Origin: Lates japonicus
Lineage: Eukaryota
DNA length: 64,000 nucleotides
Assembly (NCBI GenBank): GCA_033238685.1
Contig: BRZM01000010.1
Location: 3,885,405-3,949,404, forward strand
Reading direction: 5' to 3'
In this document: one piece after another, positions 2,943-34,547 of the stretch
How positions within the stretch are numbered: position 1 is the stretch's first letter
Layout of the letters: each line of letters starts with the position of its first letter
Translations under genes and position numbers: made by a program
The notes under the pieces: generated by a model
Database searches by the model: none
Seen by the model: only the letters and a program-made list of their open reading frames with translations
What the model was told of the DNA's origin: nothing

Positions 2943-2990
2943 ATGGAGGCGTGTATGGTGAAGCCAGAAGTCAAAAAGAAACCAAAGCCG
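2943..2990 (+). CDS. Giant APOL-domain gene, coding exon 1 (ATG; MEACMVKPEVKKKPKP), donor gtgaga
   Basis: ATG 5 nt after acceptor tctacag. 48 nt, ends phase 0 at a gtgaga donor. Chains in frame through all downstream exons to the APOL domain. Confidence 0.6.
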
Positions 2991-3074
2991 GTGAGAATAT
3001 TTAAAGCTAACGCAGAGAAGACTCAACTGACTGTGTACAGTATATAAACAGCTCCTATAAAATAACACGTTTTT

Positions 3075-3101
3075 CTATTCACAGCCTAAACCTCCTCCAA
3101 A
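3075..3101 (+). CDS. Giant APOL-domain gene exon 2 (PKPPPKPAE)
   Basis: acag|cct...gag|gtacag; 27 nt; phase 0-0. Confidence 0.55.
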
Positions 3102-3226
3102 GCCTGCTGAGGTACAGTAATAAACCCAAACCTTTGATTAAAGTTAATAATGTGTTTTTCTATATATGAACCTCAGGATGTTGTTGTGAGGTTACAGACT
3201 TCTGAAATCTGAAATAATCTTCACAG

Positions 3227-3295
3227 GTTAAAAGAAATGACCCAGAGAAACTGGGGAAACCTACTCCTGTGCTGCCTCAAAGACCTACAGACTCT
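3227..3295 (+). CDS. Giant APOL-domain gene exon 3 (VKRNDPEKLGKPTPVLPQRPTDS)
   Basis: cacag|gtt...tct|gtaagt; 69 nt; phase 0-0. Confidence 0.55.
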
Positions 3296-3444
3296 GTAAG
3301 TCCAGCATGAACAACCTTTACCTCTGTCAAGGAGGTTTTCTTTTCACCTGTGTCTGTTTGTTTATTTGTCAGCAGGATTACAAAAAAAAAAAAAAGTACG
3401 CGTTCTTTTAAGTCTGGGTTGTAGCGGTTTGTTTTTCTGTCCAG

Positions 3445-3501
3445 GAGCTGAGTCACACACAATACAGACTGAAAAAATCAGCAGCAACAACAAACAAAGC
3501 G
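3445..3501 (+). CDS. Giant APOL-domain gene exon 4 (ELSHTQYRLKKSAATTNKA)
   Basis: ccag|gag...gcg|gtattt; 57 nt. Confidence 0.5.
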
Positions 3502-3728
3502 GTATTTACTGCATTTTTAAAATGAAATTTTATTAAATGTCTTGGTTTTACAGAGAGACATGAAAAGTCTTAAGTTTGAGCTTGCATGTGAGAGTATATC
3601 AACATCAATATAATTATTTAAAATGTTTTATTTTGATTTTAATTGATACTCTGCATATGTTTACATGTTTTATACATTATTGTCCAAACAAAAGGAGGTG
3701 TATTATCATATTTATCCATCTGTATCAG

Positions 3729-3809
3729 GGCAACGGAAATTTACCACAAAGAGACACAAAAGAGAAGCTGCCTAAAACTCCTGTGGTTCCACCCAGACCC
3801 ACAGAAAAG
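3729..3809 (+). CDS. Giant APOL-domain gene exon 5 (GNGNLPQRDTKEKLPKTPVVPPRPTEK)
   Basis: atcag|ggc...aag|gtgcag; 81 nt; in frame with six-frame ORF 3576..3836. Confidence 0.55.
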
Positions 3810-4401: not shown

Positions 4402-4467
4402 AATAATCCATCGGGCCTGGGTGGAATGTTACGGCAGAGCCAAAAAGAGAAAACACCTACGTTCACT
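4402..4467 (+). CDS. Giant APOL-domain gene exon 8 (NNPSGLGGMLRQSQKEKTPTFT; degenerate basic motif)
   Basis: ttgtag|aat...act|gtaagc; 66 nt. Confidence 0.5.
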
Positions 4468-4955: not shown

Positions 4956-5033
4956 AGTTATGTGTTTGACGACGGTGACGAACAGGAAAAGCCTGGTGAT
5001 GTCCCAGCCAAACAGGCTCCTGGCAGCAAACCG
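4956..5033 (+). CDS. Giant APOL-domain gene exon 9 (SYVFDDGDEQEKPGDVPAKQAPGSKP)
   Basis: tctcag|agt...ccg|gtgggt; 78 nt. Confidence 0.5.
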
Positions 5034-5112: not shown

Positions 5113-5163
5113 GGCGTTCTGAAGGGAATGATGAAAGGTTTGCAATTCAAGTCGTCACCAAAG
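5113..5163 (+). CDS. Giant APOL-domain gene exon 10 (GVLKGMMKGLQFKSSPK; basic-hydrophobic motif)
   Basis: gacag|ggc...aag|gtacga; 51 nt. Confidence 0.5.
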
Positions 5164-5729: not shown

Positions 5730-5834
5730 ACCAGCAGAGATCCGAGTCCAGTTCCCAGCACAGAGGAAGGAGTCTCAGATAAGGAACAACCAGCAGAGAA
5801 AAACAAGCAAGAGAAAAATACAGAACCCAAACAG
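5730..5834 (+). CDS. Giant APOL-domain gene exon 11 (TSRDPSPVPSTEEGVSDKEQPAEKNKQEKNTEPKQ)
   Basis: tctctcag|acc...cag|gtaaga; 105 nt. Two frames are open; phase 0 was chosen from the chain. Confidence 0.45.
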
Positions 5835-6120: not shown

Positions 6121-6189
6121 GATATAGGAGGTCTGTTCGCTGGGATGTTCCGGAAAACACCCAAAGAGAGATTGTCTCCTCAACTGACG
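6121..6189 (+). CDS. Giant APOL-domain gene exon 12, B-type (DIGGLFAGMFRKTPKERLSPQLT)
   Basis: cttcag|gat...acg|gtaaca; 69 nt. Confidence 0.6.
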
Positions 6190-6294
6190 GTAACATCAAT
6201 AACTCTTTTTTTTTTTTTTCTTTTTAAAAACTGAATTTCCAGTTTTTATCTTTGATCTTACAACCTATGCACTCATTGTTGTGTTCCCTCCCAG

Positions 6295-6360
6295 GTCAGC
6301 AGAGCAGACAGTGATGCTGAAGATGCTGAGGAAGAGGAGAAAACATCTGAACAGTCCCAC
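6295..6360 (+). CDS. Giant APOL-domain gene exon 13, acidic (VSRADSDAEDAEEEEKTSEQSH)
   Basis: cccag|gtc...cac|gtaagt; 66 nt. Confidence 0.6.
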
Positions 6361-6660
6361 GTAAGTCTTAGTGGCATCAGCAAGCAAGTAAACTTGACAT
6401 AAATATACCATTATACAAACAGAATCCACACAGTAAAAGAACTTTAGAGTTTATTTCAGTGTAAGATTAAAGAGTAAAATAGCTGCCAAGAATTTGCTTT
6501 TTGTGTTTGAAAAGCTCAATTTTTTATGTAAAATTAGTATTGGCTTGAAGGATATGCAACAAATATGTAAAAAGATCCACATATTTAATTCTGTGTTTAA
6601 TTGTTATTTTCAAAGAGTTTGAACTGTACTGTACTTCAAAAACACATTTCTTTTCTACAG

Positions 6661-6729
6661 GAAAAAGGAGGCTTCTTCTCTGGTGTCCTTAAAAAATCCA
6701 GCAAACCAGCAGATGAAACACCTGCACAG
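6661..6729 (+). CDS. Giant APOL-domain gene exon 14, B-type (EKGGFFSGVLKKSSKPADETPAQ)
   Basis: ctacag|gaa...cag|gtgagc; 69 nt. Confidence 0.65.
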
Positions 6730-6754
6730 GTGAGCTGGCAAAAATGATTTTCTG

Positions 6755-6895
6755 CAGCCAGAAGGCAGTTAGCTTACCTCAGCATAGAGACTGAAAACAA
6801 GGAGAAACAGCTAACCTGGCTATAGCTTTGGATAGAGCAGGGGATTTTGATATATTTTACTGTCATCTGGTAAAGCTTTTGTCATTTGTTTTCCA
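6755..6895. repeat. Dispersed fish interspersed repeat, copy A (in an intron of the giant gene)
   Basis: gcagttagcttacctcagcatagagactgaaaacaaggagaaacagctaacctggctatagctttggatagagcagg is about 75% identical to copy B at 46390-46600. Confidence 0.5.
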
Positions 6896-6925
6896 CTTTT
6901 CCAACATATTACCTTGATACTTCAG

Positions 6926-6991
6926 GAGAATCTGAGTGCCTGCAGCAAGCTGTCGGCCAGCAGTGACAGTCTGTCTGAGAACAGCAAAAAG
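6926..6991 (+). CDS. Giant APOL-domain gene exon 15, A-type (ENLSACSKLSASSDSLSENSKK)
   Basis: cttcag|gag...aag|gtgagc; 66 nt. Confidence 0.65.
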
Positions 6992-7175
6992 GTGAGCAGC
7001 TTTCAGTCACAGTATCTGCTATGAGAGCAGCAGAGATAACCTTATCTTTAATCACAGTGTACACACAGACTTAAAGTAGATTTTCCTGCAACAAAAGTAC
7101 GTCATTGACCTGTCTTTGATCCGAATAAAAATCCCATAACTGACCATGTGTGCACCATTTTTCTGTCTGTGTTAG

Positions 7176-7247
7176 GAAAAAGGAGGAATATTCAGTGGGA
7201 TGTTCAGGAAGTCTCCAAAACCAACAGATGCTCCTCAGACTGACGAG
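7176..7247 (+). CDS. Giant APOL-domain gene exon 16, B-type (EKGGIFSGMFRKSPKPTDAPQTDE)
   Basis: gttag|gaa...gag|gtgacg; 72 nt. Confidence 0.65.
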
Positions 7248-7410
7248 GTGACGTAGATGGAAAACAGCTGTAACATGCCAGTCAATGTGCTATGACACAA
7301 GATGGCAGATCTATTGTGCAACTCCTCAAACGAAGCCAACAAGGTCATATCATTAGTTTAATCCTGCAGCCTGATAATCACATTGAACTCGTTCACATTT
7401 TGTGTTTCAG

Positions 7411-7473
7411 GACCAACAGTCTCTGCATGATGATCTGTCAGGCAGTAATGATAATCTGTCTGAAAATTCAAAG
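7411..7473 (+). CDS. Giant APOL-domain gene exon 17, A-type (DQQSLHDDLSGSNDNLSENSK)
   Basis: tgtttcag|gac...aag|gtgagc; 63 nt. Confidence 0.65.
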
Positions 7474-7586
7474 GTGAGCTCAGACGTATTCAGCTATGAA
7501 ATGACAGGATTATGATGCAGTGTTACCATTATTGCCGTTACGTAACAGCAGCTGATGGTGTGAATTAATTGTTCTGACATCACCAG

Positions 7587-7649
7587 GAAAAGGGAGGATT
7601 TTTCGGCGTGATTCTCAGAAAATCTCCAAAGATTCCTGAAGAGGGGCAG
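7587..7649 (+). CDS. Giant APOL-domain gene exon 18, B-type (EKGGFFGVILRKSPKIPEEGQ)
   Basis: caccag|gaa...cag|gtaatg; 63 nt. Confidence 0.65.
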
Positions 7650-8145
7650 GTAATGTGTGAGCAAGTGAAATTTTAACATAGCTAAGATTCTCCTCCACAG
7701 ATTTTAGAAACACTAATAGTCACCAGAAATGTGTGATAGTGGTAGTCTGCTCAAACTTCCTTGTTAACTGGAATAAACTATGGTTCAACATATTAAAGAG
7801 CAGATAAACGCATTTAAGTGGAGTTCAGAGTGTGAATATGTTGGAGAGTAAATTAAAGGATTAGAATGAACAAAGTCAAGATTACAATGACCAAGTGATA
7901 AATGGTGAAACTAAAAGTCAATAGGTTTTGCTGCCAGAAAAGCCAGTTTGTCTGTTAAAGTGTCTTTTTGAACAATAAACTGAAACCCTGTCTGGTCACC
8001 TAATGTTTGCTTTTCTGTTTAAAAAGGTGAATTCTGAATCCTAAAAGAAACTTGGACAGATGAGGCATTTTGACACTTTGCTTTTCTGACATTTTACCAA
8101 GAGCTTAAAATAGGACACATCAATATTGGTCACCTCAGACACTTT

Positions 8146-8170
8146 TATTATTATTATTATTATTATTATT
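8146..8170. repeat. (TTA)n microsatellite
   Basis: direct. Confidence 0.9.
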
Positions 8171-8480
8171 AGTTGCTGTTACACACAGGACTTTTAATCT
8201 CAGATGCTCTTTGGTCCAAAATGTATAAAATTCTGTTAATTTGTTGACAAAATTAGTAATTTTTATGATAGTATTGCATCTTGACACTTTTATTATCTTT
8301 GTATCATGTTTGTTCGTATTATGTTCCTAAATTACCAATAAGCTGCTTGTAAATGTAGGTTCTGCAGTGATGAGGTTTTTGCCTCTACCTGTTTGTTTCT
8401 GTAGGTGGTTTCATGTCTGCATGTAAGCGGCATGAGTGTTCATGTTCAGACAGGTCGAGTCACATTTTTGTTGTGTTCAG

Positions 8481-8540
8481 GTCTCAGAGTCGTTGCACGG
8501 TGAATTCTCTGCCAGCACTGACTGCCTAATGGAGAACAAG
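8481..8540 (+). CDS. Giant APOL-domain gene exon 19, A-type (VSESLHGEFSASTDCLMENK)
   Basis: tgttcag|gtc...aag|gtttgt; 60 nt. Confidence 0.6.
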
Positions 8541-8720
8541 GTTTGTTTTCATGACAGATTTGACAGTCCCCCCCCCCGCACACCCACTGAAACTGCATGA
8601 GTCACCATGATGAGCATGGAAACATGAGTTAATGTGCCTGTAGCTCTGTAGGAGGAAGATAAGGTTCCTAAGACCTGTTTTAATTTAGGAAATTTAATAT
8701 GTTTTCTCTTCTCCCTGTAG

Positions 8721-8777
8721 GAGAAAGGTGGTTTGTTCAGTGGACTCCTCAGAAAGACGCCCAAAACAACTGGAGAG
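8721..8777 (+). CDS. Giant APOL-domain gene exon 20, B-type (EKGGLFSGLLRKTPKTTGE)
   Basis: ccctgtag|gag...gag|gtacag; 57 nt. Confidence 0.65.
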
Positions 8778-9992
8778 GTACAGCTTCTCAAACAGTGTAG
8801 CGTAGTTTCCATGGAGACACTCTGAGCAGACCCATAAACACTGTCTAATCTTTAAAATGAAAAAAACTGTTGCTTTATTGTGCTCAAGACACTGGGTGTG
8901 CTCCATGAACCCAACTGGCAAAATGCTCTGTGTTTGTGCTGGATGGGTGTGGTTTTCCCTCCACATGCCATGAGACCCAGCAGACTTTAAAGGTGCTATA
9001 TGTATGTTTTTGCTCTCGCTGTATAACCAACATTATCATTAACAGCTGTTTACTTACCAGTCTAAAGGAAATGTTACAAGTTCAGCATCAAACTTCATTC
9101 CTTTACTTGCTAAGAGCTGTGTCCATCAGTGGAAAGTAACAGCAATATTAACTCTTGTTTTGCCTCAATTTCTATCACTTATTTTAGCATGCTAACCAGT
9201 TAGCTCCTGCCCATCTTGTCTCATAATACCACTTGTGAGTCACTGTAGCGTCCAGTCTGCCTTTAGTCCAACATGACGAGATGAAGTTGCGCTATCATGT
9301 CATCTATCACATGATCATAGATATCATATATGCAAAACACTACAGTCATCTTTTTTTTCCAAATACTGTTTACAAAATATCATTGTCCTTAGTGGTGCTG
9401 GATTACCAACCAGGCAAAGCAGGCAACTGCCCAGGGGCCCCAGAAGCTCCGAGCTGAGCATACATGGTCTTTTGTTGTGGAGATCATGGCAGCACATGAG
9501 GCAGTTCAAGTGCCTGTTGTTTATACTTGTTCCAAAAGTTCAAAATAGATTTTTAAAAATGAAAAACCACATGTTACCAACAGGATTGTCCCGACTAATG
9601 AAATCCTTTTACACACAGTTTGTCATGACTGAATCCTAATTAAAATGATCCTGTTGTGTCTGACAAGCTATAAAAAGATGCAATCAAAGATTACCGCAGC
9701 ATCTTTATTACCTGCTGCTGTTTTATTATCAGCTCATAGAGACTCAGAATCATACCTACCATGTTACGTGCCAACTGGTTTCCCTGTCCTTCCCATGAGT
9801 ATGACTAAATGGAGCACAGCCAGTGTGACACATGTTCCTCATATGTCCACCAATGTTTTCAAATGCTGCACCCAGGAAGAGGAGAAAATAAATCATGACA
9901 GACAAATATTTAAGCACATTTCCTTTTCATTTATCCCCTTCTACCATTTCCTGTTGGATTGTTTTTCCTGACAGTTTTGATTGTTGTTTCAG

Positions 9993-10064
9993 GAGAATCT
10001 GTCAGCACAGAAAAAAGATCTTTCAGCCAGTAATGACAGTCTGTCTGAGGCCGCCAACACCAAG
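9993..10064 (+). CDS. Giant APOL-domain gene exon 21, A-type (ENLSAQKKDLSASNDSLSEAANTK)
   Basis: tgtttcag|gag...aag|gtcagt; 72 nt; frame confirmed against ORF 9981..10247. Confidence 0.65.
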
Positions 10065-10425
10065 GTCAGTTTGGTCATAAGAATGCTCTCTAGAGTCTCA
10101 TTTTTAAAAGATCAACATCAATCATTATCAAATCAAATACATGAATATTCCCCGGGAGCTAACAATGAAACAATGCAGCTCAAAGAGTCAATCCTTTGGG
10201 GAATCATGTTTATTGCTTATAAAAGTTGGACTTATGACTGGAGTTGAAATGCGTAGTCACAGAAATTTATTCTGCAACTACTATTAAAGTAATAGTTTAA
10301 GTTCTATTTCAAGCAAAAAGGCCAAAAATTTCTCTGTTATCTGTCTCTGTTTCTGTTGTATTTTGTTTGGAAGAAGTAATGTGTATATATAGAATTTTGA
10401 AAAACCTGTGTACCTGACATTTCAG

Positions 10426-10497
10426 GAGAAGGGAGGTGCGTTCAGTGGAATGTTCAAGAAGTCGTCCAAACTTGCAGATGGTCCTCCCACTGAGGAG
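10426..10497 (+). CDS. Giant APOL-domain gene exon 22, B-type (EKGGAFSGMFKKSSKLADGPPTEE)
   Basis: tttcag|gag...gag|gtaaga; 72 nt. Confidence 0.65.
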
Positions 10498-10564
10498 GTA
10501 AGAAGTGTCTCCTCTGTTTTCTGGTTCTGTCCAGTCACTCAGTAGTGTTGTTGAAAGCTGCATG

Positions 10565-10700
10565 TCGGCAAAACATCAGGGTAGACTTGTGACTAGAAGG
10601 TTGCCGGTTTGAATCCCAGGGCCAACATAAAAAACATCATGTAAATAAATGCAAGGAACCCTGAGGAAAGTTCCAGGCTAGAATCCAACCAGAGACAGTG
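10565..10700. mobile_element. tRNA-derived SINE-like fragment (ggtagacttgtgactagaaggttgccggtttgaatcccagggcc)
   Basis: B-box-like GGTT..G(A/T)TCC motif in the context typical of fish tRNA-derived SINEs; lies within an intron. Confidence 0.35.
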
Positions 10701-11005
10701 TAGTTATGTGGTATGCATCTCAACTGCTTGTCTGGTGAATGCCTGAAAAACAGGATTTGCTATGTGAATAAATATCTCTGCTCTTTTCCCTATGAAATGT
10801 TGTTTTATAAAAGCTGTTAGATGTTAGTGGATGTGGCTCATATTTAAAACTTGGCCAAACTTTTATTATAAAACACTGTGGGAAATGCTGGGAGTAAATA
10901 CAGTTCATATCCTGAGTATTTAACAGTGAGATGCCCTGAAGCTGAGGTGAATGTAAAAAGACCTCTAATGTGAAACAGGTTCTAATTAACTTTTTCTTTT
11001 TTCAG

Positions 11006-11071
11006 GAAAAACAGATGCAAGACGATGAGCGGCCAGGCAGCAGTGAAGGTCTGTCTGAAAACAACACCAAG
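11006..11071 (+). CDS. Giant APOL-domain gene exon 23, A-type (EKQMQDDERPGSSEGLSENNTK)
   Basis: ttttcag|gaa...aag|gtgaga; 66 nt. Confidence 0.65.
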
Positions 11072-11148
11072 GTGAGATTTTTTAATAGCATCATTTGAAA
11101 ACAATCCTGTTTAACTTCTATTTCTTTAAGAGACAGTGCTCATGTTTC

Positions 11149-11174
11149 GTGTGTGTCTGTGTGTGTGTGTGTGT
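11149..11174. repeat. (TG)13 directly abutting the 3' splice site of exon 24 of the giant gene
   Basis: gtgtgtgtgtgtgtgtgtgtgtgtttcag|gaaaaagg. Confidence 0.9.
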
Positions 11175-11179
11175 TTCAG

Positions 11180-11248
11180 GAAAAAGGACTATTTAGTGGA
11201 ATATTCAAAAAGTCGCACAAACCGGCAGAAGCTGCTCAACCTGAGGAG
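11180..11248 (+). CDS. Giant APOL-domain gene exon 24, B-type (EKGLFSGIFKKSHKPAEAAQPEE); acceptor directly preceded by (TG)13
   Basis: gtgtgtgtgtttcag|gaa...gag|gtaact; 69 nt. Confidence 0.65.
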
Positions 11249-11826
11249 GTAACTGTATGAATCATTTTTCAAAATACTGACCTTTATCCAGCTCTTAACC
11301 TGCTTTGCTTTATTGTGTTTCCATGTTTCCATTTCCAAACATTTATGATACCTTTTTATATTGTAAAGCCTCATGACCTCCATTAAGAGCACTGTGTTTT
11401 TTCACCAGAGGCTGTTTGAAATTTGACTCATTTTCAATGTAATTTTGTGGGAAATTCAGAATAACAATGTACAAGTGATCAGTTGTTGGTGCAGATTAAC
11501 TCTGTCTTTTAAAAGCATTCTTAACATTGTACATTTTTTTTTAACTATTTCCCTATTTTCCTCACAAAACATTGCACTGAATGATTGCCTGTTACTGTGT
11601 TTATACTGATGCAGATCTGTACACAGATATAGATTTGGTGTAGATTCAAGTTTCAAAACATTTTCTACAATTAAAGAAACAAATATCTGTTGAAACTATG
11701 ACACATTACAATTATTTTTATTAAGTTTTATTAGGAAAAAAATGTCTGAATTTATCTGCAATCTTTTAAAACTTTTCAGAGGATAAACTGTTAATGCAGC
11801 TTCACTTACAACTTTGTCTTTTACAG

Positions 11827-11886
11827 AATGAGTCTTCTGAGAATGAGCTCTCAGCCAGTAATGAAAATTTGGCAGAGAACAAACAG
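11827..11886 (+). CDS. Giant APOL-domain gene exon 25, A-type (NESSENELSASNENLAENKQ)
   Basis: ttacag|aat...cag|gtcagt; 60 nt. Confidence 0.6.
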
Positions 11887-12004
11887 GTCAGTGAGTTTAA
11901 ATCAGTGCTGTTTAGTGGCTTTTCAGTGAACCAGTTTCATTTATAAATATTTCAGCACTGGTCCCATCTCAGCCCTAAAACCTTTTCTTGTGTCTTTCCA
12001 TCAG

Positions 12005-12109
12005 GAGAAAGGTGCGGGGCTGTTCAGTGGACTCCTCAAAAAGACTCCGAAAGCGTCAGGAGAAGAAGGTGGTGAATCTGCCTGTGGTTCAAACTCTTTC
12101 ATTTCTCAG
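12005..12109 (+). CDS. Giant APOL-domain gene exon 26, extended B-type (EKGAGLFSGLLKKTPKASGEEGGESACGSNSFISQ); donor choice uncertain
   Basis: catcag|gag... A nearer gtggtg at 12069 would break the frame (64 nt). The strong donor cag|gtgggc at 12110 gives 105 nt with an open frame. The exon could also be skipped without frame loss. Confidence 0.4.
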
Positions 12110-12986
12110 GTGGGCCGACACTGACGACCTGTCTGGAAATTTCTTCACAAGGTGGCGGTGTAATGCAACAAAAACTTTGTGATAAATGTCTCGGAGGAAC
12201 GTTCACTAACACCACATTATTTTTTAGGAGAAATGTTTCCAACCTTATGTTTAAAACAGCAGAAAGCCAGCAGAGAACAGCTGAAAAGTACTGTGATTGA
12301 ACAAGGCGTTATTGTTCTGCCGGAGAATGAATACTGATACTAACATTTGTTCTTTTCTGGTTTGAATTCAGGGCAGGAAAACGGTGAAAATCAGTTATCT
12401 GGCAGCTAGAATCAGATGACACCGTTGTGAAGATTGCCTATCTACAAAGGCACTTTTTCTTCTCTTTGTTTTTTTGGTCAATGGCTACTTTTGTCCTTCA
12501 TTAACATAGACGACAGATCAGTCAAATCAGATTTTTATGAGATAGTACTGTGGGTTTTACATTGTAAAGTTCTTATACGTGCATTGTACTCAGGTTTGTG
12601 ATAATTCTTTGACAAGACACAAGTACTTTCCAAAGTTAAAATTTGATATAAATAAAATTTAAAAAACAATGTTAAACCAAAGTATGCAAAAGGCAGGTTT
12701 AAGATAGTAATATACATCTTGGAATAAGCCTTCACTGAAGTAATATCTAATATATTCTTGACGGTTGTGGCAGGGACTCTGTGTTGTTGGGTTAAATGGC
12801 ATTTTTGTTGAAGGGCTGTGTTAAATTTATATTCCTTAACATTAAGCTTCAGCATTTAGATTTCACTTTTTGGTCATTTCTCTCTTTGCTGTTATTTTCT
12901 GTCTCTTTTTGGTTGTTTTGAGTCTTTTCTCGGGTCCCCTGACCTCCTCATTAATCCATCCATGCATCTGTGTTTTTTCTTGTCAG

Positions 12987-13055
12987 GAGAAAGGACTGTT
13001 CAGTGGCCTTAAGAAGAAAACACCCAAAGCGTCTGGAGATGATGCAGCTGCAGAG
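12987..13055 (+). CDS. Giant APOL-domain gene exon 27, B-type (EKGLFSGLKKKTPKASGDDAAAE)
   Basis: tgtcag|gag...gag|gtgagt; 69 nt; frame anchored by ORF 12870..13082. Confidence 0.65.
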
Positions 13056-13155
13056 GTGAGTGCTCGGCTAGTTTTATGCTAACACTGTTAGCATCTTAGT
13101 CTATGGTAACTGTTGCACATATGAACTTAATGTACATTCTTTATTCTTTTTTCAG

Positions 13156-13212
13156 GACAAAGACGAGCTGTTTGCAAGTGACGAGAGTCTGTCTGAGAAC
13201 ACTAACACCAAG
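13156..13212 (+). CDS. Giant APOL-domain gene exon 28, A-type (DKDELFASDESLSENTNTK)
   Basis: tttcag|gac...aag|gtactg; 57 nt. Confidence 0.65.
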
Positions 13213-13472
13213 GTACTGAGTTGAGAAATGTCAGCACTATAAACTGTGTGCAACACAACTACTCCTGTGCATTTGAAAACTGAACAGTATTTCAAATATG
13301 TTAAGTTTGTGGTGAATTTTTTTTCTCATTCATCCTTTACAAACTGTACAAATATAAAATGTATCATTTCTAATTAGTACATTGCATTTATGGGGATTCA
13401 AAAATATATATTATGTCTCTGGAAACCAAACGTTGTCTCTCCTTCATTCAGTTCCTGCATTTCTGTTTTTAG

Positions 13473-13538
13473 GAGAAAAGTATTTTCAGCGGGATGTTTA
13501 AGAAGACTCATAAACCAGCAGAGGGGACGACAGATGAG
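13473..13538 (+). CDS. Giant APOL-domain gene exon 29, B-type (EKSIFSGMFKKTHKPAEGTTDE)
   Basis: ttttag|gag...gag|gtgcag; 66 nt. Confidence 0.65.
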
Positions 13539-13639
13539 GTGCAGTAATAACATTTACATAAAGTTGACATTGCATTACACACATTTGACTATTTTGTATT
13601 CGTCTTCATTTTTTATGTTTTATTTTCATGTGTTTTCAG

Positions 13640-13711
13640 GAATCAAACGCAGGCAATTCTAAGAAATTATCTGCCAGTTGTGAGAATCTGTTGGAGGCAA
13701 ACGCATCAAAG
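13640..13711 (+). CDS. Giant APOL-domain gene exon 30, A-type (ESNAGNSKKLSASCENLLEANASK)
   Basis: ttttcag|gaa...aag|gtacaa; 72 nt. Confidence 0.65.
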
Positions 13712-13808
13712 GTACAAATGTTGTCTGATGATCACAACTTTAGTCTGTTTCTTTCTCTTCTGTTATTGATTGTTGATTATTAATGTGTAAATGTTTCATC
13801 TGTTTCAG

Positions 13809-13880
13809 GAGAAGACAGGAGGATTTGCAGGGATCTTCAAAAAGTCTCCCAAACCAGCTCCACGCTCTGTTGTTACTAAG
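13809..13880 (+). CDS. Giant APOL-domain gene exon 31, B-type (EKTGGFAGIFKKSPKPAPRSVVTK)
   Basis: tgtttcag|gag...aag|gtgact; 72 nt. Confidence 0.65.
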
Positions 13881-14039
13881 GTGACTAAATAAACTGATTT
13901 GGGTTTTTCGATGTGTAAAGTTATCAGCTGTTTAGATGTCTGTGAAACCTCTTATTTACATTTTTAAGAGAATCATATTATGGCAAATTCTCCATAAATA
14001 ACCCTCAACAAACCTGACTGCTGACAAACTGTTCTCCAG

Positions 14040-14102
14040 GATCCACTCATTAACTCAGAGGAACTGTCCGCCAGCTGGGACAGTCTCGCAGACGCTGCTG
14101 AG
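14040..14102 (+). CDS. Giant APOL-domain gene exon 32, A-type (DPLINSEELSASWDSLADAAE)
   Basis: tctccag|gat...gag|gtgagc; 63 nt. Confidence 0.6.
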
Positions 14103-14608
14103 GTGAGCGCAAGTCTGTGGATACACTTAACAACATGTTAATACTGTACGTTTATACTGTAGGCAACAGTACCAATAAATGTTAATCAGAATATTTTGTT
14201 GCCTACAAAACATTTGAGTAACACAATGGTAAGTATTTAAACAAAAGGCTACATTTGACTACATGTCTGAGGAAAGGGAATCTCAGAAGACTAGAAGTAA
14301 CTGTATGGAGCCTTCCTTTCTCCAGATTGTCTGCCAGCGAACATTTAGAATAGATTTTCAGCATCAGCATTTGCTGTTTTATACAGAGGCCCATTTCTGT
14401 CACTGTGATGGGAAGTTGTCATAATAAGAAACTCTCTCAAGATAGTGATTCAGTAAGTCACTTACAGGATCTTTGTTTTCATCACATTGGCAGAAATGCA
14501 CTTCCAGTTTTTAGATTTTTAACCCTCACTTTACTTTGTACTTTGTGGCCTGGTTATGAGAAGGTTCCCAGTCAGTGATAAATAACTTTTGATTGCATTT
14601 TTTTAAAG

Positions 14609-14680
14609 GAGGATCTGTCAGCACACGGTGAATTGTCTGCCAGTACTGAAAACCTTTGTGAAGCTACAAGCACCGCAAAG
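14609..14680 (+). CDS. Giant APOL-domain gene exon 33, A-type (EDLSAHGELSASTENLCEATSTAK)
   Basis: tttaaag|gag...aag|gtgaga; 72 nt. Confidence 0.6.
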
Positions 14681-14771
14681 GTGAGACTTGCAGAGTGTGT
14701 TAACCTGTTTGATTGACTGAATGAACACCTTTTTGTGACTTATAAATACATCATGTTTTATATTTTTACAG

Positions 14772-14831
14772 GAGAAAAAAGTAGGGTTTGGTGGGATGTT
14801 CAGGAGGACGCCCAAAACTGTGGAACACCAG
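14772..14831 (+). CDS. Giant APOL-domain gene exon 34, B-type (EKKVGFGGMFRRTPKTVEHQ)
   Basis: tttacag|gag...cag|gtgcga; 60 nt. Confidence 0.65.
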
Positions 14832-15168: not shown

Positions 15169-15240
15169 GAAAGCGAGGACATGGAGGCACCAGAGGGAGG
15201 TGGGCTGAGACGCAGGAGGACAATCAAGAAGCAAAGACGA
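15169..15240 (+). CDS. Giant APOL-domain gene exon 35 (ESEDMEAPEGGGLRRRRTIKKQRR; basic, NLS-like)
   Basis: gttgcag|gaa...cga|gtgagt; 72 nt. Confidence 0.6.
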
Positions 15241-15472: not shown

Positions 15473-15535
15473 GTTGTGTCATTCCGAGTGAAGAAAACTC
15501 TTCCCAAACTACCCAAACTTAATTTATCCTCACAG
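15473..15535 (+). CDS. Giant APOL-domain gene exon 36 (VVSFRVKKTLPKLPKLNLSSQ)
   Basis: tttctcag|gtt...cag|gtgtgt; 63 nt. Confidence 0.6.
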
Positions 15536-15856: not shown

Positions 15857-15919
15857 ACTTCTGATAAGATGCCTGTCATAGAGGAGACTGTGGAGCTGCA
15901 GGAGCTGAACCCAGCACAG
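15857..15919 (+). CDS. Giant APOL-domain gene exon 37 (TSDKMPVIEETVELQELNPAQ)
   Basis: gcacag|act...cag|gttagc; 63 nt. Confidence 0.6.
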
Positions 15920-16551: not shown

Positions 16552-16626
16552 GAGGGCACAGTGGAGGTCCAGCCTGTAGAGATGGCAGCTTACCCAACTG
16601 AAGATAACCCTCTTGAATATGAGCAG
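16552..16626 (+). CDS. Giant APOL-domain gene exon 38 (EGTVEVQPVEMAAYPTEDNPLEYEQ); donor followed by (TG)14
   Basis: ttttccag|gag...cag|gtgtgt; 75 nt; frame anchored by ORF 16468..16680. Confidence 0.65.

Positions 16627-16643: not shown

Positions 16644-16672
<29 letters not shown>
16644..16672. repeat. (TG)14 starting 18 nt downstream of the exon 38 donor
   Basis: direct. Confidence 0.9.
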
Positions 16673-16734: not shown

Positions 16735-16774
16735 GAAACTGATGAACTGATGGAGTGGTGGAACTCTGTAAAAG
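16735..16774 (+). CDS. Giant APOL-domain gene exon 39 (ETDELMEWWNSVK, ends phase 1)
   Basis: ttttcag|gaa...aaag|gttagt; 40 nt. Confidence 0.6.
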
Positions 16775-16893: not shown

Positions 16894-16945
16894 GTTGGAC
16901 TGAGTGGAACGAAACATCCAATTTCCAGGAGGAGGATGAGGAAAC
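16894..16945 (+). CDS. Giant APOL-domain gene exon 40 (GWTEWNETSNFQEEDEET, phase 1 to 2)
   Basis: ttccag|gttgg...gaaac|gtaagc; 52 nt. Restores the frame exactly into the APOL-domain exon. Confidence 0.6.
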
Positions 16946-17282: not shown

Positions 17283-17697
17283 GGCTATGGAGCAGGCAGC
17301 TGATCGTGTCTACATGGCAGCTCGCCTCTTCGTGCATCTCTTCAACCAGCGCGGGGCTTCCTTACAACACCGCATCCTGGAGCTTTTGACCCTGGCCGAC
17401 GCTGCGGATCAATTCCACAAGAAAACGGTGACGGCTGCTGTGGGTGGAGGGGTGGCCAGTGTTGCAGGCAGCGTGGCTACAATCACAGGGCTCATTCTGG
17501 CACCTTTCACTTTCGGTGCCTCTATTATTGTCACGGCGGTGGGGATCGGTGTGGCGACGGCAGGCAGCATCACCTCAGCAACGGCTAATATCACAGACAC
17601 AGTTCACTCCAACATGGACAGGAAGAAAGTGGAGAAGATGATCCAGGGCTACCAGGATGAGATCAAAGACATCAGGGAGTGTTTGGAGTTCATGCAG
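17283..17697 (+). CDS. Giant APOL-domain gene exon 41: APOL core (MEQAADRVYMAARLFVHLFNQRG...Gly/Ala-rich transmembrane hairpin ...ILAPFTFGASIIVTAVGIGVATAG...DIRECLEFMQ)
   Basis: (TC)n-ag|ggctatgg...atgcag|gtgagg; 415 nt. Matches six-frame ORF 17236..17718. Homologous to the human APOL1 hairpin GLAPFTEGGSLVLLEPGMELGITAALTGI and the following KLKEVREFL region. Confidence 0.85.
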
Positions 17698-18378
17698 GTG
17701 AGGACATGTTTGACTTGAGTTTGTGCTTTAGAAATTGAGAATAATCTCACACAGGCTTTGCAGCTGTGTCACAAATTTCTCCACTGATGCCCGCATTCAG
17801 GTCTGGGTCGAGTAGTAATGCAAAAATAGATAAACGAGTTACCCTAAAAAAGTAGGTGTTGTGTAGATTAGGGCAGAATCTACCAGTTATTTTATTTCAC
17901 AGATAATTTGGCAATTATTTTTACAATTAGTCCATTTCATTTTTAGTCTAAAATGTCTAATACTCAAAAATTACCATCACAAGATGAACACCTAAGTCTA
18001 GGCCTTATCATCCCCACTGGTTTTCATCAATGTTTTTATTGGTATACTGGTATTAAATTGCATTCTATGTGGTATTAAAAAAGCCTTAAATTTAACTTGG
18101 TGAGCCCTGCAAAAATTGTTACTGTAATATAGCAGAATCAGGGGTTTCTTTCAGGTATTTCCATCCTAAAATACTTCTGTATGGTTGGTGTTATTTTTTT
18201 CCACCTCAACGATGGTTCACTATAACAAATATGAAAGAATAAAATCAGAATTTTAGGGTATACATTTTGATTTTTAAATTACACTTCATGTATGGTGAGA
18301 AAACCTTTGAAAAGAATGATTATAATGTCTTTCTGAGACGGTATTTAACATCCTTTCCTGTCTCTGTGCCTCCTGTAG

Positions 18379-20112
18379 GAAGGTATGGACACCCTGCAGG
18401 AGTGGGACTTTGAGAAATACTCTCAGAGTGCTGCCAAAAAGGCCCTGAACCACAACATTAAACATGTGGTGAAGGAGGGTGGCCGTGCTGGGAAAGCCCT
18501 GATGATCAACACTGACAAACTCATCAGCACCGTGCAGGTTCTGGGTGCTGCAGGCGGTGCCGCCAAAGCCGCCCAGGCCATCAGCGTCACCACAGGGGTC
18601 ATGTCGGCCCTCTTCCTGGCTCTGGATGTCTTCTTCCTCGCCAAAGATTCCCACGAGCTCCACAAAGGCGCCAAAACCAAATTCGCCACCAAGATCAGGG
18701 AGGTGTGTAAAGACCTTCAAGACGGTCTCCTGGAGCTGAACAAGGTGAAGACGCAGCTGCAGAAAACCATGGACGGCATCGAGGTGGAGGAGTATGAGGA
18801 GATCGAGGAGGTGGAGGTGGAGGTCGAAGATGACTTGGAGTCTGATCCTAAGAAGCTGGCCGAGCTGGAGCAGGAGCTAGACCTCCTGGAGGAGAAACTG
18901 GACAAAAAGATTGAGGAAGAGCAGAAGAAGAATAAAGAGATGGAGGGAGAAAATCAGAAAAGTAAGAAAGAGACAAAGGAGGAGAAGAGCATGAAGGAGA
19001 AAGGAGATGCAGAGAAACAGAAGGAGGACGAGGAGAAAATGGGAGAAAATGATGCAAAGAAAGAGGGAAAGAAGGAGAGTAAGAAGGAAAAAGACAAAGG
19101 AGAAAGCAAATTTGAGTCTGCATTAGAGAAACTACCTGAGGAGGAAAGAGAGCAGAATAAGGAGAAAACTGGCAAAGCAGCTAAAGAGGAAGTTTTAAAA
19201 GAACAATCTCAGAAAGGAAGCAAAAAAGACAAAGAAACTGAGAACCGCATTACTGCTGGGAAAGAAAAACACGAGAGCAAGCGAGACAAGGCAAAGACAG
19301 ATGAAAAACAGAAGAAGGTGGATGCAGAAGAACAGGAGGAACCTGCGAGTAAATCGGGTGACACAAAACAAGGAAGGCCGAGGTCAGAACGGGTCAAAAC
19401 CGAGAGTCAAAGAAGCAAGAGCAGCAGAGAGGATGAAAGAGGAGTAAAGCATGAGTGGAAATCAGTGACTAAAGAGAAAGAGGTGGAAAGTGGGAGTGTG
19501 AGGAGGCACAGCAGCAGGAGTGAGCATGACAGAGAAAGAGGGGGTAAACATGAAATGAGAGAAACTGATAAGGAGAGACTCCCTAGAAAAGAAAGTGACA
19601 GGACAGAGAGCCGGAGGAGGACAGAGGAGGAGAGAGGAGTAAAAGACTGGAGAGCTGAGATGGCAAAAAGTAGAGAGCAGAGGAAAGAAAGTAAAGAGGG
19701 AAGAGAATCCAAGAGAGAGACAGAGAGAGGGACGAAACAAGACAGTCACAGAAAAAGCGACGTGAGGAGAGAGTCACATCGAAGTCATGAGATGGGGACG
19801 AGGAGGGAGAGAGAGTGGGGGAGCAGCAGGGAGGAGTCAGACTCACAGAGGAGTCACCACAGGAGAGGAACGGCCCCGCATGACGAGAAACGGGGGAGCA
19901 GGCTTGAGAGTGCGAGGAGGCAGTTTGAAAAAGCAGGGGGTGAGGAGGCAGATGAGGAGGAGGAGAGGAGAAGGAGGAGGGAGGATGGAGGGGGTAGTCG
20001 GAGGAGGGACAAGGATAGGAGAGGAAGCGACCGAGACAGAGAGCACGAACACAGCCACAGAGGATCTCGATCTGGATCCAGCGCTCTGCTGGAAGACGGA
20101 CTGTACATTTAG
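18379..20112 (+). CDS. Giant APOL-domain gene terminal coding exon: APOL C-terminal (SRA-interacting-like) region, ...MSALFLALDVFFLAKDSHELHKGAKTKFATKIRE..., then an acidic EEVEVEVEDD segment, a K/E-rich coiled-coil-like segment and an R/E/S/D-rich (RS/RD/RE-like) tail; stop TAG 20110-20112
   Basis: tcctgtag|gaaggtATG...; in frame with ORF 18385..20112 (575 aa). Matches the APOL1 C-terminus [35 protein letters not shown]. Confidence 0.85.
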   Translation, partial: EGMDTLQEWDFEKYSQSAAKKALNHNIKHVVKEGGRAGKALMINTDKLISTVQVLGAAGGAAKAAQAISVTTGVMSALFLALDVFFLAKDSHELHKGAKTKFATKIREVCKDLQDGLLELNKVKTQLQKTMDGIEVEEYEEIEEVEVEVEDDLESDPKKLAELEQELDLLEEKLDKKIEEEQKKNKEMEGENQKSKKETKEEKSMKEKGDAEKQKEDEEKMGENDAKKEGKKESKKEKDKGESKFESALEKLPEEEREQNKEKTGKAAKEEVLKEQSQKGSKKDKETENRITAGKEKHESKRDKAKTDEKQKKVDAEEQEEPASKSGDTKQGRPRSERVKTESQRSKSSREDERGVKHEWKSVTKEKEVESGSVRRHSSRSEHDRERGGKHEMRETDKERLPRKESDRTESRRRTEEERGVKDWRAEMAKSREQRKESKEGRESKRETERGTKQDSHRKSDVRRESHRSHEMGTRREREWGSSREESDSQRSHHRRGTAPHDEKRGSRLESARRQFEKAGGEEADEEEERRRRREDGGGSRRRDKDRRGSDRDREHEHSHRGSRSGSSALLEDGLYI

Positions 20113-33936: not shown

Positions 33937-34088
33937 CTGAGGGGAAAAACAGACCACAGATCATTAAGTGAGTGTTGCCAAGGACCGCAGATCCAGTCCC
34001 TTCATTGGGGGTTTACCCCGCAGTGTGAATTCAGTCGCAGTGGAACATCCTGTTCCCAGCAGATCTCAAAAACATGTCTGATCCATCA

Positions 34089-34547
<459 letters not shown>

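Follow-up and report, generated by a model that had tools for sequence, protein, structure and literature searches.

Gene structure of the locus

The 64-kb window analysed here (64,000 nucleotides of Lates japonicus, GenBank assembly GCA_033238685.1, contig BRZM01000010.1, positions 3,885,405 to 3,949,404 of the forward strand) is eukaryotic genomic DNA in which long open reading frames (ORFs) are scarce. A bacterial-style ORF listing of the window was uninformative because the DNA is eukaryotic and its coding sequence is divided over mini-exons. The interval 6661-14831, in which a first-pass annotation had noticed a protein repeat, is the middle of a single teleost protein-coding gene for an ApoL-family membrane protein. 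This gene lies on the + strand, with its ATG at 2943 and its stop at 20112, as determined by tblastn of homologues and splice-site inspection. In total, 39 exons were spliced into an uninterrupted ORF of 1522 codons with canonical AG/GT boundaries, and three more small N-terminal exons together with a longer K3 exon extend the model to 42 exons and ~1590 residues. The encoded protein consists of a Cys4/polybasic/proline-rich head, an array of B and A units, a polybasic block, an acidic Trp-rich linker, a complete ApoL domain and an E/K/R-rich tail.

The exons are given below in window coordinates. HMM E-values were obtained with profile hidden Markov models (HMMs) built from the units. PF05461 is the Pfam model of the ApoL family, dN/dS is the ratio of nonsynonymous to synonymous substitution, AF2 stands for AlphaFold2, BH for basic-hydrophobic and MARCKS-ED for the MARCKS effector domain.

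2943..2990, +: exon 1, coding part, MEACMVKPEVKKKPKP, with start codon and conserved Cys4 + polybasic head; tblastn, GT donor; N-terminus kept in homologues P0004, P0017 and P0024-P0031
3085-3111, 3227-3295, 3445-3501, 3729-3809, 4088-4147 and 4241-4306, +: N-terminal Pro/Lys-rich exons, all phase 0-0, holding PVLPQRP and PVVPPRP
4402..4467, +: B0a, degenerate B-like exon, NNPSGLGGMLRQSQKEKTPTFT; matches P0025 residues 127-148
4956..5033, +: L1, acidic linker exon, SYVFDDGDEQEKPGDVPAKQAPGSKP
5113..5163, +: B0b, degenerate B-like exon, GVLKGMMKGLQFKSSPK, net +4
5730..5834, +: L2, linker exon
6121..6189, +: B1, DIGGLFAGMFRKTPKERLSPQLT; HMM E=1.3e-11; AG/GT, 69 nt
6295..6360, +: L3, acidic linker exon, VSRADSDAEDAEEEEKTSEQSH, net -7
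6661..6729, +: B2, EKGGFFSGVLKKSSKPADETPAQ; HMM E=6.4e-12
6926..6991, +: A1, ENLSACSKLSASSDSLSENSKK; HMM E=1.2e-8
7176..7247, +: B3, EKGGIFSGMFRKSPKPTDAPQTDE; HMM E=3.5e-15
7411..7473, +: A2, DQQSLHDDLSGSNDNLSENSK; HMM E=1.6e-10
7587..7649, +: B4, EKGGFFGVILRKSPKIPEEGQ; HMM E=2.3e-11
8481..8540, +: A3, VSESLHGEFSASTDCLMENK; HMM E=9.8e-11
8721..8777, +: B5, EKGGLFSGLLRKTPKTTGE; HMM E=6.6e-12; protein identical in Cottoperca (nd=0)
9993..10064, +: A4, ENLSAQKKDLSASNDSLSEAANTK; HMM E=2.2e-8
10426..10497, +: B6, EKGGAFSGMFKKSSKLADGPPTEE; HMM E=1.2e-11
11006..11071, +: A5, EKQMQDDERPGSSEGLSENNTK; HMM E=4.7e-11
11180..11248, +: B7, EKGLFSGIFKKSHKPAEAAQPEE; HMM E=4e-12
11827..11886, +: A6, NESSENELSASNENLAENKQ; HMM E=1.9e-7
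12005..12109, +: B8, EKGAGLFSGLLKKTPKASGEE...; HMM E=7.5e-9; donor uncertain
12987..13055, +: B9, EKGLFSGLKKKTPKASGDDAAAE; HMM E=2.8e-9
13156..13212, +: A7, DKDELFASDESLSENTNTK; HMM E=4e-8
13473..13538, +: B10, EKSIFSGMFKKTHKPAEGTTDE; HMM E=1.8e-12
13640..13711, +: A8, weaker, ESNAGNSKKLSASCENLLEANASK; HMM E=0.21; clean AG/GT; counterpart unit in P0024 and P0025
13809..13880, +: B11, EKTGGFAGIFKKSPKPAPRSVVTK, net +5; HMM E=6.3e-12
14040..14102, +: A9, weaker, DPLINSEELSASWDSLADAAE; HMM E=0.057
14609..14680, +: A10, EDLSAHGELSASTENLCEATSTAK; HMM E=4.8e-11
14772..14831, +: B12, last unit, EKKVGFGGMFRRTPKTVEHQ; HMM E=4.8e-11
15169..15240, +: K1, first half of the polybasic MARCKS-ED-like block, ESEDMEAPEGGGLRRRRTIKKQRR; dN/dS 0.05; BH-like score 1.30
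15473..15535, +: K2, second half of the polybasic block, VVSFRVKKTLPKLPKLNLSSQ
15857..15919, +: K3, TSDKMPVIEETVELQELNPAQ
16552..16626, +: W1, acidic, EGTVEVQPVEMAAYPTEDNPLEYEQ
16735..16774, +: W2, Trp-rich linker, ETDELMEWWNSVK(G); first non-phase-0 junction; AF2 helix in the P0012 homologue
16894..16945, +: W3, (G)WTEWNETSNFQEEDEE(T)
17283..17697, +: ApoL exon 1, helix and Gly/Ala/Ile-rich transmembrane-type hairpin; PF05461 E=1.1e-23; 89.7% nt identity to Cottoperca
18379..18780, +: ApoL exon 2, part, second hairpin region and coiled segment; PF05461
18781..20112, +: E/K/R-rich low-complexity tail, ~440 aa, ending ...LLEDGLYI, then stop

The end of B8 allows two models. With the GT after 12068 the frame is lost; with the one after 12109 it is retained, and the exon gains GGESACGSNSFISQ, a stretch unseen in homologues. 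This extension could be species-specific, or it could reflect an alternative or defective donor.

Two alternating motifs on mini-exons

Both motifs of the first-pass annotation, a basic-aromatic one (B) and a Ser-rich acidic one (A), are present and alternate on the + strand. When the unit-built HMMs were scanned against 3451 open segments from a six-frame translation of the window, 12 B matches (E 3.5e-15 to 7.5e-9) and 8 A matches (E 4.7e-11 to 1.9e-7) were obtained, all on the + strand and within 6121-14831. Two weaker A units with clean AG/GT splice sites (13640-13711 and 14040-14102) bring the number of A units to 10. Outside the array, the best HMM score on either strand of the window was only E ~0.06. 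The units follow the order B, acidic linker, B A B A B A B A B A B A B B A B A B A A B, and together form an array of ~520 residues with a period of 45 residues. Its start had been placed at 6661, which is corrected here to 6121, and two degenerate B-like exons lie further upstream.

Each unit is encoded by a mini-exon of its own, which measures 51-105 nt, is bounded by AG/GT, has a length divisible by three and is in phase 0-0. Translation of all frames showed a polypyrimidine tract and an AG before each motif and a GT after it. The units were not detected at the DNA level by a tandem-repeat finder because they have diverged and are separated by introns. The array is not a product of chance, since its exons are conserved in comparison with Cottoperca while the introns diverge, and dN/dS is low. 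The Cottoperca gobio locus is collinear with the window from start codon to stop, with an identity of 80-92% in exons and a much lower or undetectable identity in introns. Nei-Gojobori estimates between the window and Cottoperca gave a dN/dS of 0.22 for the B exons, 0.20 for the A exons, 0.08-0.15 for the ApoL exons and 0.05-0.13 for the polybasic block. Both the B and the A units are under purifying selection.

Motif profiles were made from 94 B and 64 A units of species ranging from eels to percomorphs. The B consensus is E-K-G-G-phi-F-[SG]-G-[MIL]-F-[KR]-K-[ST]-P-K-P (phi, hydrophobic residue), in which G3 (84%), G4 (80%), F6 (84%), G8 (95%), F10 (81%), K/R11 (97%) and K/R12 (96%) are conserved, followed by S/T13 (81%), P14 (73%) and K15 (95%). 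The A consensus is [ED]-[ND]-L-S-x-x-[SG]-E-L-S-[AG]-S-[NS]-D-[SN]-L-[ST]-[ED]-N, with S12 present in 100% of the units, L16 in 95%, S10 in 94%, L9 in 90% and D14 in 83%. Beyond its acidity, the A unit retains two Leu residues seven positions apart and an invariant Ser. The alternation of B and A is kept in every homologue.

No Pfam family was identified in the concatenated array at E<=1, and a match to the Tk-SP N-propeptide (E=0.04) was rejected as spurious. In the full-text literature, no paper was found that holds the motif strings or the names apold1a, apold1b or rp71-1g18.13. With no Pfam family and no literature found, the array is undescribed. The first-pass annotation had named two findings that would count against it, namely motifs that are not conserved in orthologues and motifs that belong to a characterised non-membrane repeat family. 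On both points it held up, as the motifs are kept in orthologues from eels to percomorphs and fall in no characterised repeat family in Pfam or the literature.

Distribution, paralogues and isoforms

In a word-indexed search, the array matched 23 teleost proteins, which are uncharacterised or spuriously auto-named. An exhaustive phmmer search with the Cottoperca orthologue (P0001) as query matched 63 proteins among 1.84 billion representatives, and among these 63 the array is confined to teleost ApoL proteins. The single non-fish match, P0066 from Coemansia, is an unrelated fungal repeat protein and was discarded. The named members belong to the Elopomorpha, Clupeiformes, Osmeriformes, Salmoniformes, Gadiformes, Polymixiiformes, Lampriformes and many percomorphs. 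PF05461 was found in all seven long representatives (1100-1700 aa) that were scanned with Pfam, and the ApoL hairpin motif is located C-terminal to the array in the long array-bearing proteins, in independent gene models of many species. Ahead of the Trp linker, isoform X3 of apold1a from the cypriniform Paramisgurnus dabryanus (P0123, 513 aa), the one isoform seen, has a lone B-like unit that is degenerate, GKLRGTFRTSPKPALR. A reduction or loss of the array in Cypriniformes, including zebrafish, is conceivable from this model.

Orthologues are listed at NCBI and Ensembl as 'apold1a', 'Apolipoprotein L domain containing 1a' or 'si:rp71-1g18.13', and others have been mis-named 'microtubule-associated futsch', 'dentin matrix acidic phosphoprotein 1-like', 'ankyrin repeat domain 11' or 'ubiquitin carboxyl-terminal hydrolase 36'. 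In Cottoperca gobio (LR131924.1, 10001-30875), the orthologue is annotated as two genes with 278 bp between them, one for a 571-aa 'nucleolar protein dao-5-like' and one for an ApoL protein of 1029 aa. This split is an artefact, since the A and B units continue across the boundary into the ApoL model. An extra ApoL gene is present upstream in tandem at the Cottoperca locus (L001 1-3593).

Repeat arms at the N-terminus are also found in two paralogous fish ApoL families: family 2 (P0047, P0051 and P0054), with the N-terminus MDRY.NLDLDLECEGGG, and family 3 (P0109, P0117, P0160 and P0063). Both keep the core G-phi-phi-x-G-phi-phi-[KQ]K and continue with NPF where the window gene has KK[ST]PKP. 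The paralogue cores have the form G-M-phi-K-G-phi-M-Q-K followed by NPF, for example GMMQKVNPFKS and KLNPFRSANK, in 2-6 copies per protein, and in P0063 from O. keta the NPF-type units alternate with A-like units. NPF is an established ligand motif of EH domains, and the two paralogous families resemble NPF-repeat EH-domain ligands in this respect. No NPF was found in the window protein and its orthologues.

The differences between RefSeq isoforms in Osmerus, Oncorhynchus and Solea correspond exactly to whole units (45, 49, 140, 16 and 42 aa). Those of 45, 49 and 140 aa are losses of B together with A, as one or three pairs. In O. mykiss, isoforms drop a lone A unit without a B unit, and in isoform X3 of Solea, L1 and B0b are skipped together. 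Since all unit exons are in phase 0-0, the valency of the array can be tuned without breaking the frame. With its low predicted order, one unit per symmetric exon and unit-wise isoforms in the RefSeq models of other fish, the array fits an exon-modular repeat region that is predicted to be disordered.

The ApoL domain and its known relatives

The tether of the array to an ApoL domain, as suggested earlier, was borne out. The spliced domain matches PF05461 with 122 bits (E=4.2e-35) over model positions 43-297 of 298, at a gathering score of 25.9 bits, and the single ApoL exons reach 84.6 and 36.9 bits. By this profile test, the window gene is a member of the ApoL family. Compared with the classical APOL1-6, the window protein is a near full-length match to the PF05461 model that they share, and it differs from them in having, by inspection, no N-terminal hydrophobic signal sequence. 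We know of no repeat array described for the classical APOLs.

Authentic tetrapod APOLD1 (VERGE) was retrieved with a bait that matches database entries at 100%. It shares a helix and a Gly/Ala-rich transmembrane-type hairpin with the window protein (32-34% identity over ~125 aa, E ~1e-20). In contrast to the window protein of ~1590 aa, tetrapod APOLD1 is 226-312 aa long and lacks the N-terminal array, the polybasic block, the Trp linker and the charged tail. Because it spans only positions 59-141 of PF05461, against 43-297 in the window domain, the fish domain is the more complete of the two. The window model, with its length and full ApoL domain, also falls outside the description of APOLD1 as a short hairpin-only protein (~250-300 aa). 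The name 'apold1a' is that of the source databases, and the sequence alignment to tetrapod APOLD1 covers the hairpin half only. Pore-forming or ion-channel activity has been shown for APOL1. Mammalian APOLD1 has been argued to be probably fusogenic and membrane-inserting, and not pore-forming (2024 review, PMC11726835).

Residues 22-139 of the spliced ApoL domain (17283-18780, +) have a weak likeness to components of ClyA-family alpha-pore-forming toxins (phmmer E=0.003), with matches to Bacillus NHE L1 (6tao_A) and Vibrio MakE (6w08_A). This may be a distant fold relationship or a compositional similarity of helix-hairpin regions. Directly before the domain lies the Trp-rich acidic linker ELMEWWNSVKGWTEWNETSNFQEEDEE (16735-16774 and 16894-16945, +), which is kept in all three fish paralogue families and absent from the retrieved tetrapod APOLD1 sequences. 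AF2 predicts two short helices for this linker, contiguous with the first ApoL helix, at a predicted local distance difference test (pLDDT) score of 71-76.

In terms of architecture, the closest analogy known to us is the PEVK region of titin, in which basic PPAK and acidic poly-E modules are each encoded by small, differentially spliced exons. In both, basic modules would alternate with acidic ones, each on a small symmetric exon of its own, in a disordered stretch of splice-dependent length. There is no sequence relationship, and titin PEVK is an elastic sarcomeric spring, whereas the array is an arm on a membrane-insertion domain.

Charge, phosphorylation sites and predicted structure

The B unit had been compared to the MARCKS effector domain. 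The likeness, which made the comparison a reasonable lead, consists of Lys/Arg beside Phe, a Ser/Thr in a basic patch and a predicted lack of structure. Overall it is weak: a B core has a net charge of +3/+4 and 1-2 aromatics, compared to +13 and 5 Phe in the MARCKS effector domain, and it has acidic flanks and position-specific conservation. Because of the flanking Glu/Asp, whole B exons are near neutral, with net charges of 0 to +2 and one (B11) at +5, and the net charge of the A exons lies between 0 and -6. Over its 520 residues, the array sums to a net charge of -21 before any phosphorylation, at a fraction of charged residues of 0.32. It is a blocky polyampholyte, and the segregation of charge along it is above that of all 1000 shuffles (z=3.2).

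Lipid-binding potential was estimated with a BH-like scan, for which the published 19-residue window and threshold of 0.6 (PMC6960411) were used with approximate scale values, so that the scores serve for relative ranking only. On this approximate scale, six B cores scored 0.18-0.48, below the threshold, and B11 scored 0.62, while the K1-K2 block scored 1.30 against 1.22 for the MARCKS effector domain. Validated BH lipid-binding sites depend on composition and tolerate scrambling (PMC6960411).

The counterpart of the MARCKS effector domain in the window protein is the K1-K2 block. This polybasic block, GGGLRRRRTIKKQRR|VVSFRVKKTLPKLPKL (15169-15240 and 15473-15535, +), is located ~340 bp downstream of the flagged interval, has a net charge of +13 with zero acidic residues, and holds Thr/Ser flanked by hydrophobics. 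No other part of the N-terminal half is as constrained. Judged from its sequence, K1-K2 is a much better candidate than the B units for an electrostatic, phospho-regulated membrane switch.

The view of B as an amphipathic motif was not sustained. The helical moment of the B core, muH(100 deg), is 0.44, within the range of composition-matched shuffles (0.37 +/- 0.17; 35% of the shuffles are as high). AF2 was run on the array, polybasic block, linker and N-terminal half of the ApoL domain of homologue P0012. Over the array it predicted coil with a pLDDT of 34-59, the exception being an 8-residue helix (pLDDT <60) in a Gly-less unit. The Trp linker and the first helices of the ApoL domain were predicted as helical, with a pLDDT of 71-80. 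Amphipathic helices of the ApoA-I-like 22-mer type were ruled out, as B is Gly/Pro-rich and predicted to be coil.

The Ser/Thr-Pro site that had been noticed in the basic motif is found again in the profiles: [ST]P occurs in 60% of the B units, [KR][KR][ST] in 69%, and S/T at position 13 in 81%. A phosphorylatable Ser/Thr within the basic patch of B is therefore plausible. The label of the A unit as a casein kinase 2 (CK2)-type motif fared less well. The minimal CK2 site [ST]-x-x-[DE] occurs in 62% of the 64 A units and the strict form in 3%, and at position 15, the lone fitting CK2 Ser, 70% of the units have S and 27% have N, whereas S12, S10, L9 and L16 are better conserved. The patterns [DE]xx[ST] and [DEN]x[ST]-phi occur in 95% and 86% of the A units, respectively. 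Three other readings of the A unit were ruled out. For an IRF3-type pLxIS motif in 'ELSAS', the Ile position is Ala/Gly in 88% of the units; for a beta-TrCP DSGxxS motif in 'DSLSEN', Leu stands in place of the essential Gly; and Fam20C S-x-E sites are present in 14% of the A units of a protein that, by inspection, has no signal peptide.

Terminal regions and neighbouring features

The N-terminus reads ME-x-C followed by KKKPKPPKPPPKP, and it is kept from eels to percomorphs (window 2943-3809, +). The Cys beside this polybasic stretch may be palmitoylated and act as a membrane anchor. Also in the N-terminal exons, PVLPQRP and PVVPPRP are PxxPxR-like and resemble class II SH3 ligands. At the other end, orthologues retain the terminal LLEDGLYI-stop as [LM]L.DGL[YD]I, a candidate C-terminal recognition motif. 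The strong purine and GC skew and the composition anomaly at 18-20 kb are due to the E/K/R-rich tail.

In the intron directly after W1, a (TG)14 microsatellite is present (16644-16672, +), which gives many spurious GT 'donors' in naive exon scans. No more ApoL paralogues were found when these were sought in the window outside 2.9-20.2 kb. On the opposite strand, a neighbouring gene is indicated by an exon-sized ORF (34086-34538, -) with a Pfam RRM_1 match (E=1.5e-13), which by eye is of the hnRNP C / RALY type.

Interpretation of the array

The reading favoured here, tentatively, is that the arm is a cytosolic, multivalent and splice-tunable scaffold of two short linear motifs. The arm lies between the Cys/polybasic/proline head and the +13 block, Trp linker, ApoL domain and charged tail. 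Motif B (G-G-phi-F-x-G-phi-F-[KR]-K-[ST]-P-K) and motif A (E-L-S-[AG]-S-[NS]-D-[SN]-L-[ST]-[ED]) would each be recognised position-specifically by a folded partner, or by each other. The sum of these weak contacts would set the site at which, or the strength with which, the ApoL membrane domain is held, and the choice of exons would set their number. They would probably be modulated by phosphorylation, at the [ST]P of B and at the clustered serines of A. Non-specific lipid binding of the MARCKS type would more likely be the task of K1-K2 than of B, which may add weak interfacial contacts. The position-specific conservation that includes Gly and Pro, the Leu/Ser pattern of A, the NPF of the paralogues and the unit-wise isoforms argue for specific recognition and away from composition-driven lipid binding. 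Several points weigh against the scaffold. B pairs four bulky hydrophobics with three or four Lys/Arg amid many membrane-binding elements, so avidity-driven lipid binding by at least 12 units is possible, and the NPF of the paralogues may have been acquired later and have nothing to do with the function of B. In addition, the BH-like scale values are approximate and not those of the official tool, the AF2 alignment over the array is shallow, so that low pLDDT is weak evidence, and the isoform differences are those of predicted RefSeq models of other species.

The idea from which this analysis started is that B binds acidic membranes, that the A units are CK2-type acceptor spacers, and that phosphorylation of A or of the [ST]P in B frees the arm, so that the array would serve as a polyvalent phospho-switch recruiting the ApoL domain to membranes. 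This switch is possible but unlikely. It would suit a B core of phi-F-x-G-phi-F followed by [KR]K[ST]PK, with [KR][KR][ST] and [ST]P at the frequencies given above, and an A unit that is Ser-rich and acidic with [DE]xx[ST] in nearly every copy. The motifs are conserved in orthologues and found in no characterised family, the surroundings are rich in membrane-associated elements (N-terminal Cys and polybasic head, K1-K2, Trp linker, ApoL hairpins), and the number of units would allow avidity. However, the B cores carry only +3/+4 in roughly neutral exons, and an array with a net charge of -21 should already be repelled by acidic membranes when unphosphorylated. The six scored B cores also stay under the BH threshold, the helical moment is no higher than in shuffles, the strictness with which Gly, Pro and the order of residues are conserved is unexpected for composition-driven binding, and the minimal CK2 site is missing from more than a third of the A units, with the fitting Ser replaced by Asn in about a quarter. 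What stands of the first-pass proposal is the motifs, their alternation, the ApoL tether and a plausible phosphosite in B, and the numbers do not support the MARCKS, amphipathic and CK2 labels. It is rather unlikely that the arm is a splice-tunable, phospho-switchable 'zipper' that gates engagement of the target membrane by the ApoL hairpin, together with the N-terminal Cys/polybasic anchor and K1-K2. Here, many weak B contacts, with membrane or partner, would be combined with acidic A blocks as the gate.

Self-association of B with A, within or between molecules, would give an auto-inhibited compact arm or a condensate-like ApoL patch on the membrane, with valency set by splicing and strength by phosphorylation. 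It would resemble the PPAK and poly-E modules of titin PEVK. Points in its favour are the segregation of charge beyond all shuffles at a 45-residue period, the B/A alternation in all homologues, the predicted disorder, the aromatic and Leu 'stickers' conserved in both units, and the isoform deletions that take B and A together. Self-association is nevertheless quite improbable, given the moderate charged fraction and modest z-score, the O. mykiss isoforms that lose a single A without B, and several B-B or A-A neighbours. Very improbable is the reading of B as a compressed WH2/thymosin-like actin motif (a hydrophobic cluster and L-K-K-T), by which the array would bind or nucleate actin. Spire and Cordon-bleu have a tandem WH2 arrangement, which the layout of the array recalls, and several B units read LLKKTPK or LLRKTPK and so share with WH2 a repeated motif ending in L-[KR]-K-T. 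Such a function would also fit the reported link of mammalian APOLD1 to the endothelial cytoskeleton, in that APOLD1 loss is reported to affect cytoskeletal architecture (PMC9973481). On the other hand, the Pfam scan of the concatenated array returned no WH2 match at E<=1, the spacing from the hydrophobic cluster to KK is, by inspection, two residues shorter than in WH2, most units read F-K-K-S-P and not L-K-K-T/V, and no helix is predicted in B. The absent profile match and the wrong spacing led to its rejection.

Significance

The ApoL family is of medical importance, as APOL1 is involved in kidney disease and in the lysis of trypanosomes, APOL3 in the killing of bacteria and APOLD1 in bleeding of vascular origin, and the control of the membrane activity of this family is poorly understood. 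Teleost ApoL genes carry a conserved two-motif, modular-exon arm of roughly 500-900 residues that is in no database family or paper found. Automatic annotation splits or mislabels the gene ('nucleolar protein dao-5-like', 'futsch', 'USP36', 'DMP1-like'), and the motif signature lets annotators merge the split gene models. The array is a lineage-restricted elaboration that brings no new principle, and its function is inferred. The two motifs, together with the cassette-exon logic and the MARCKS-like block, lead to hypotheses on the positioning or gating of the ApoL domain that can be tested in fish. If the 'zipper' reading were true, the arm would provide the first case of a multivalent disordered array that controls what an ApoL protein does, and exon choice would be a genetic handle on ApoL and APOLD1 function in vertebrates.

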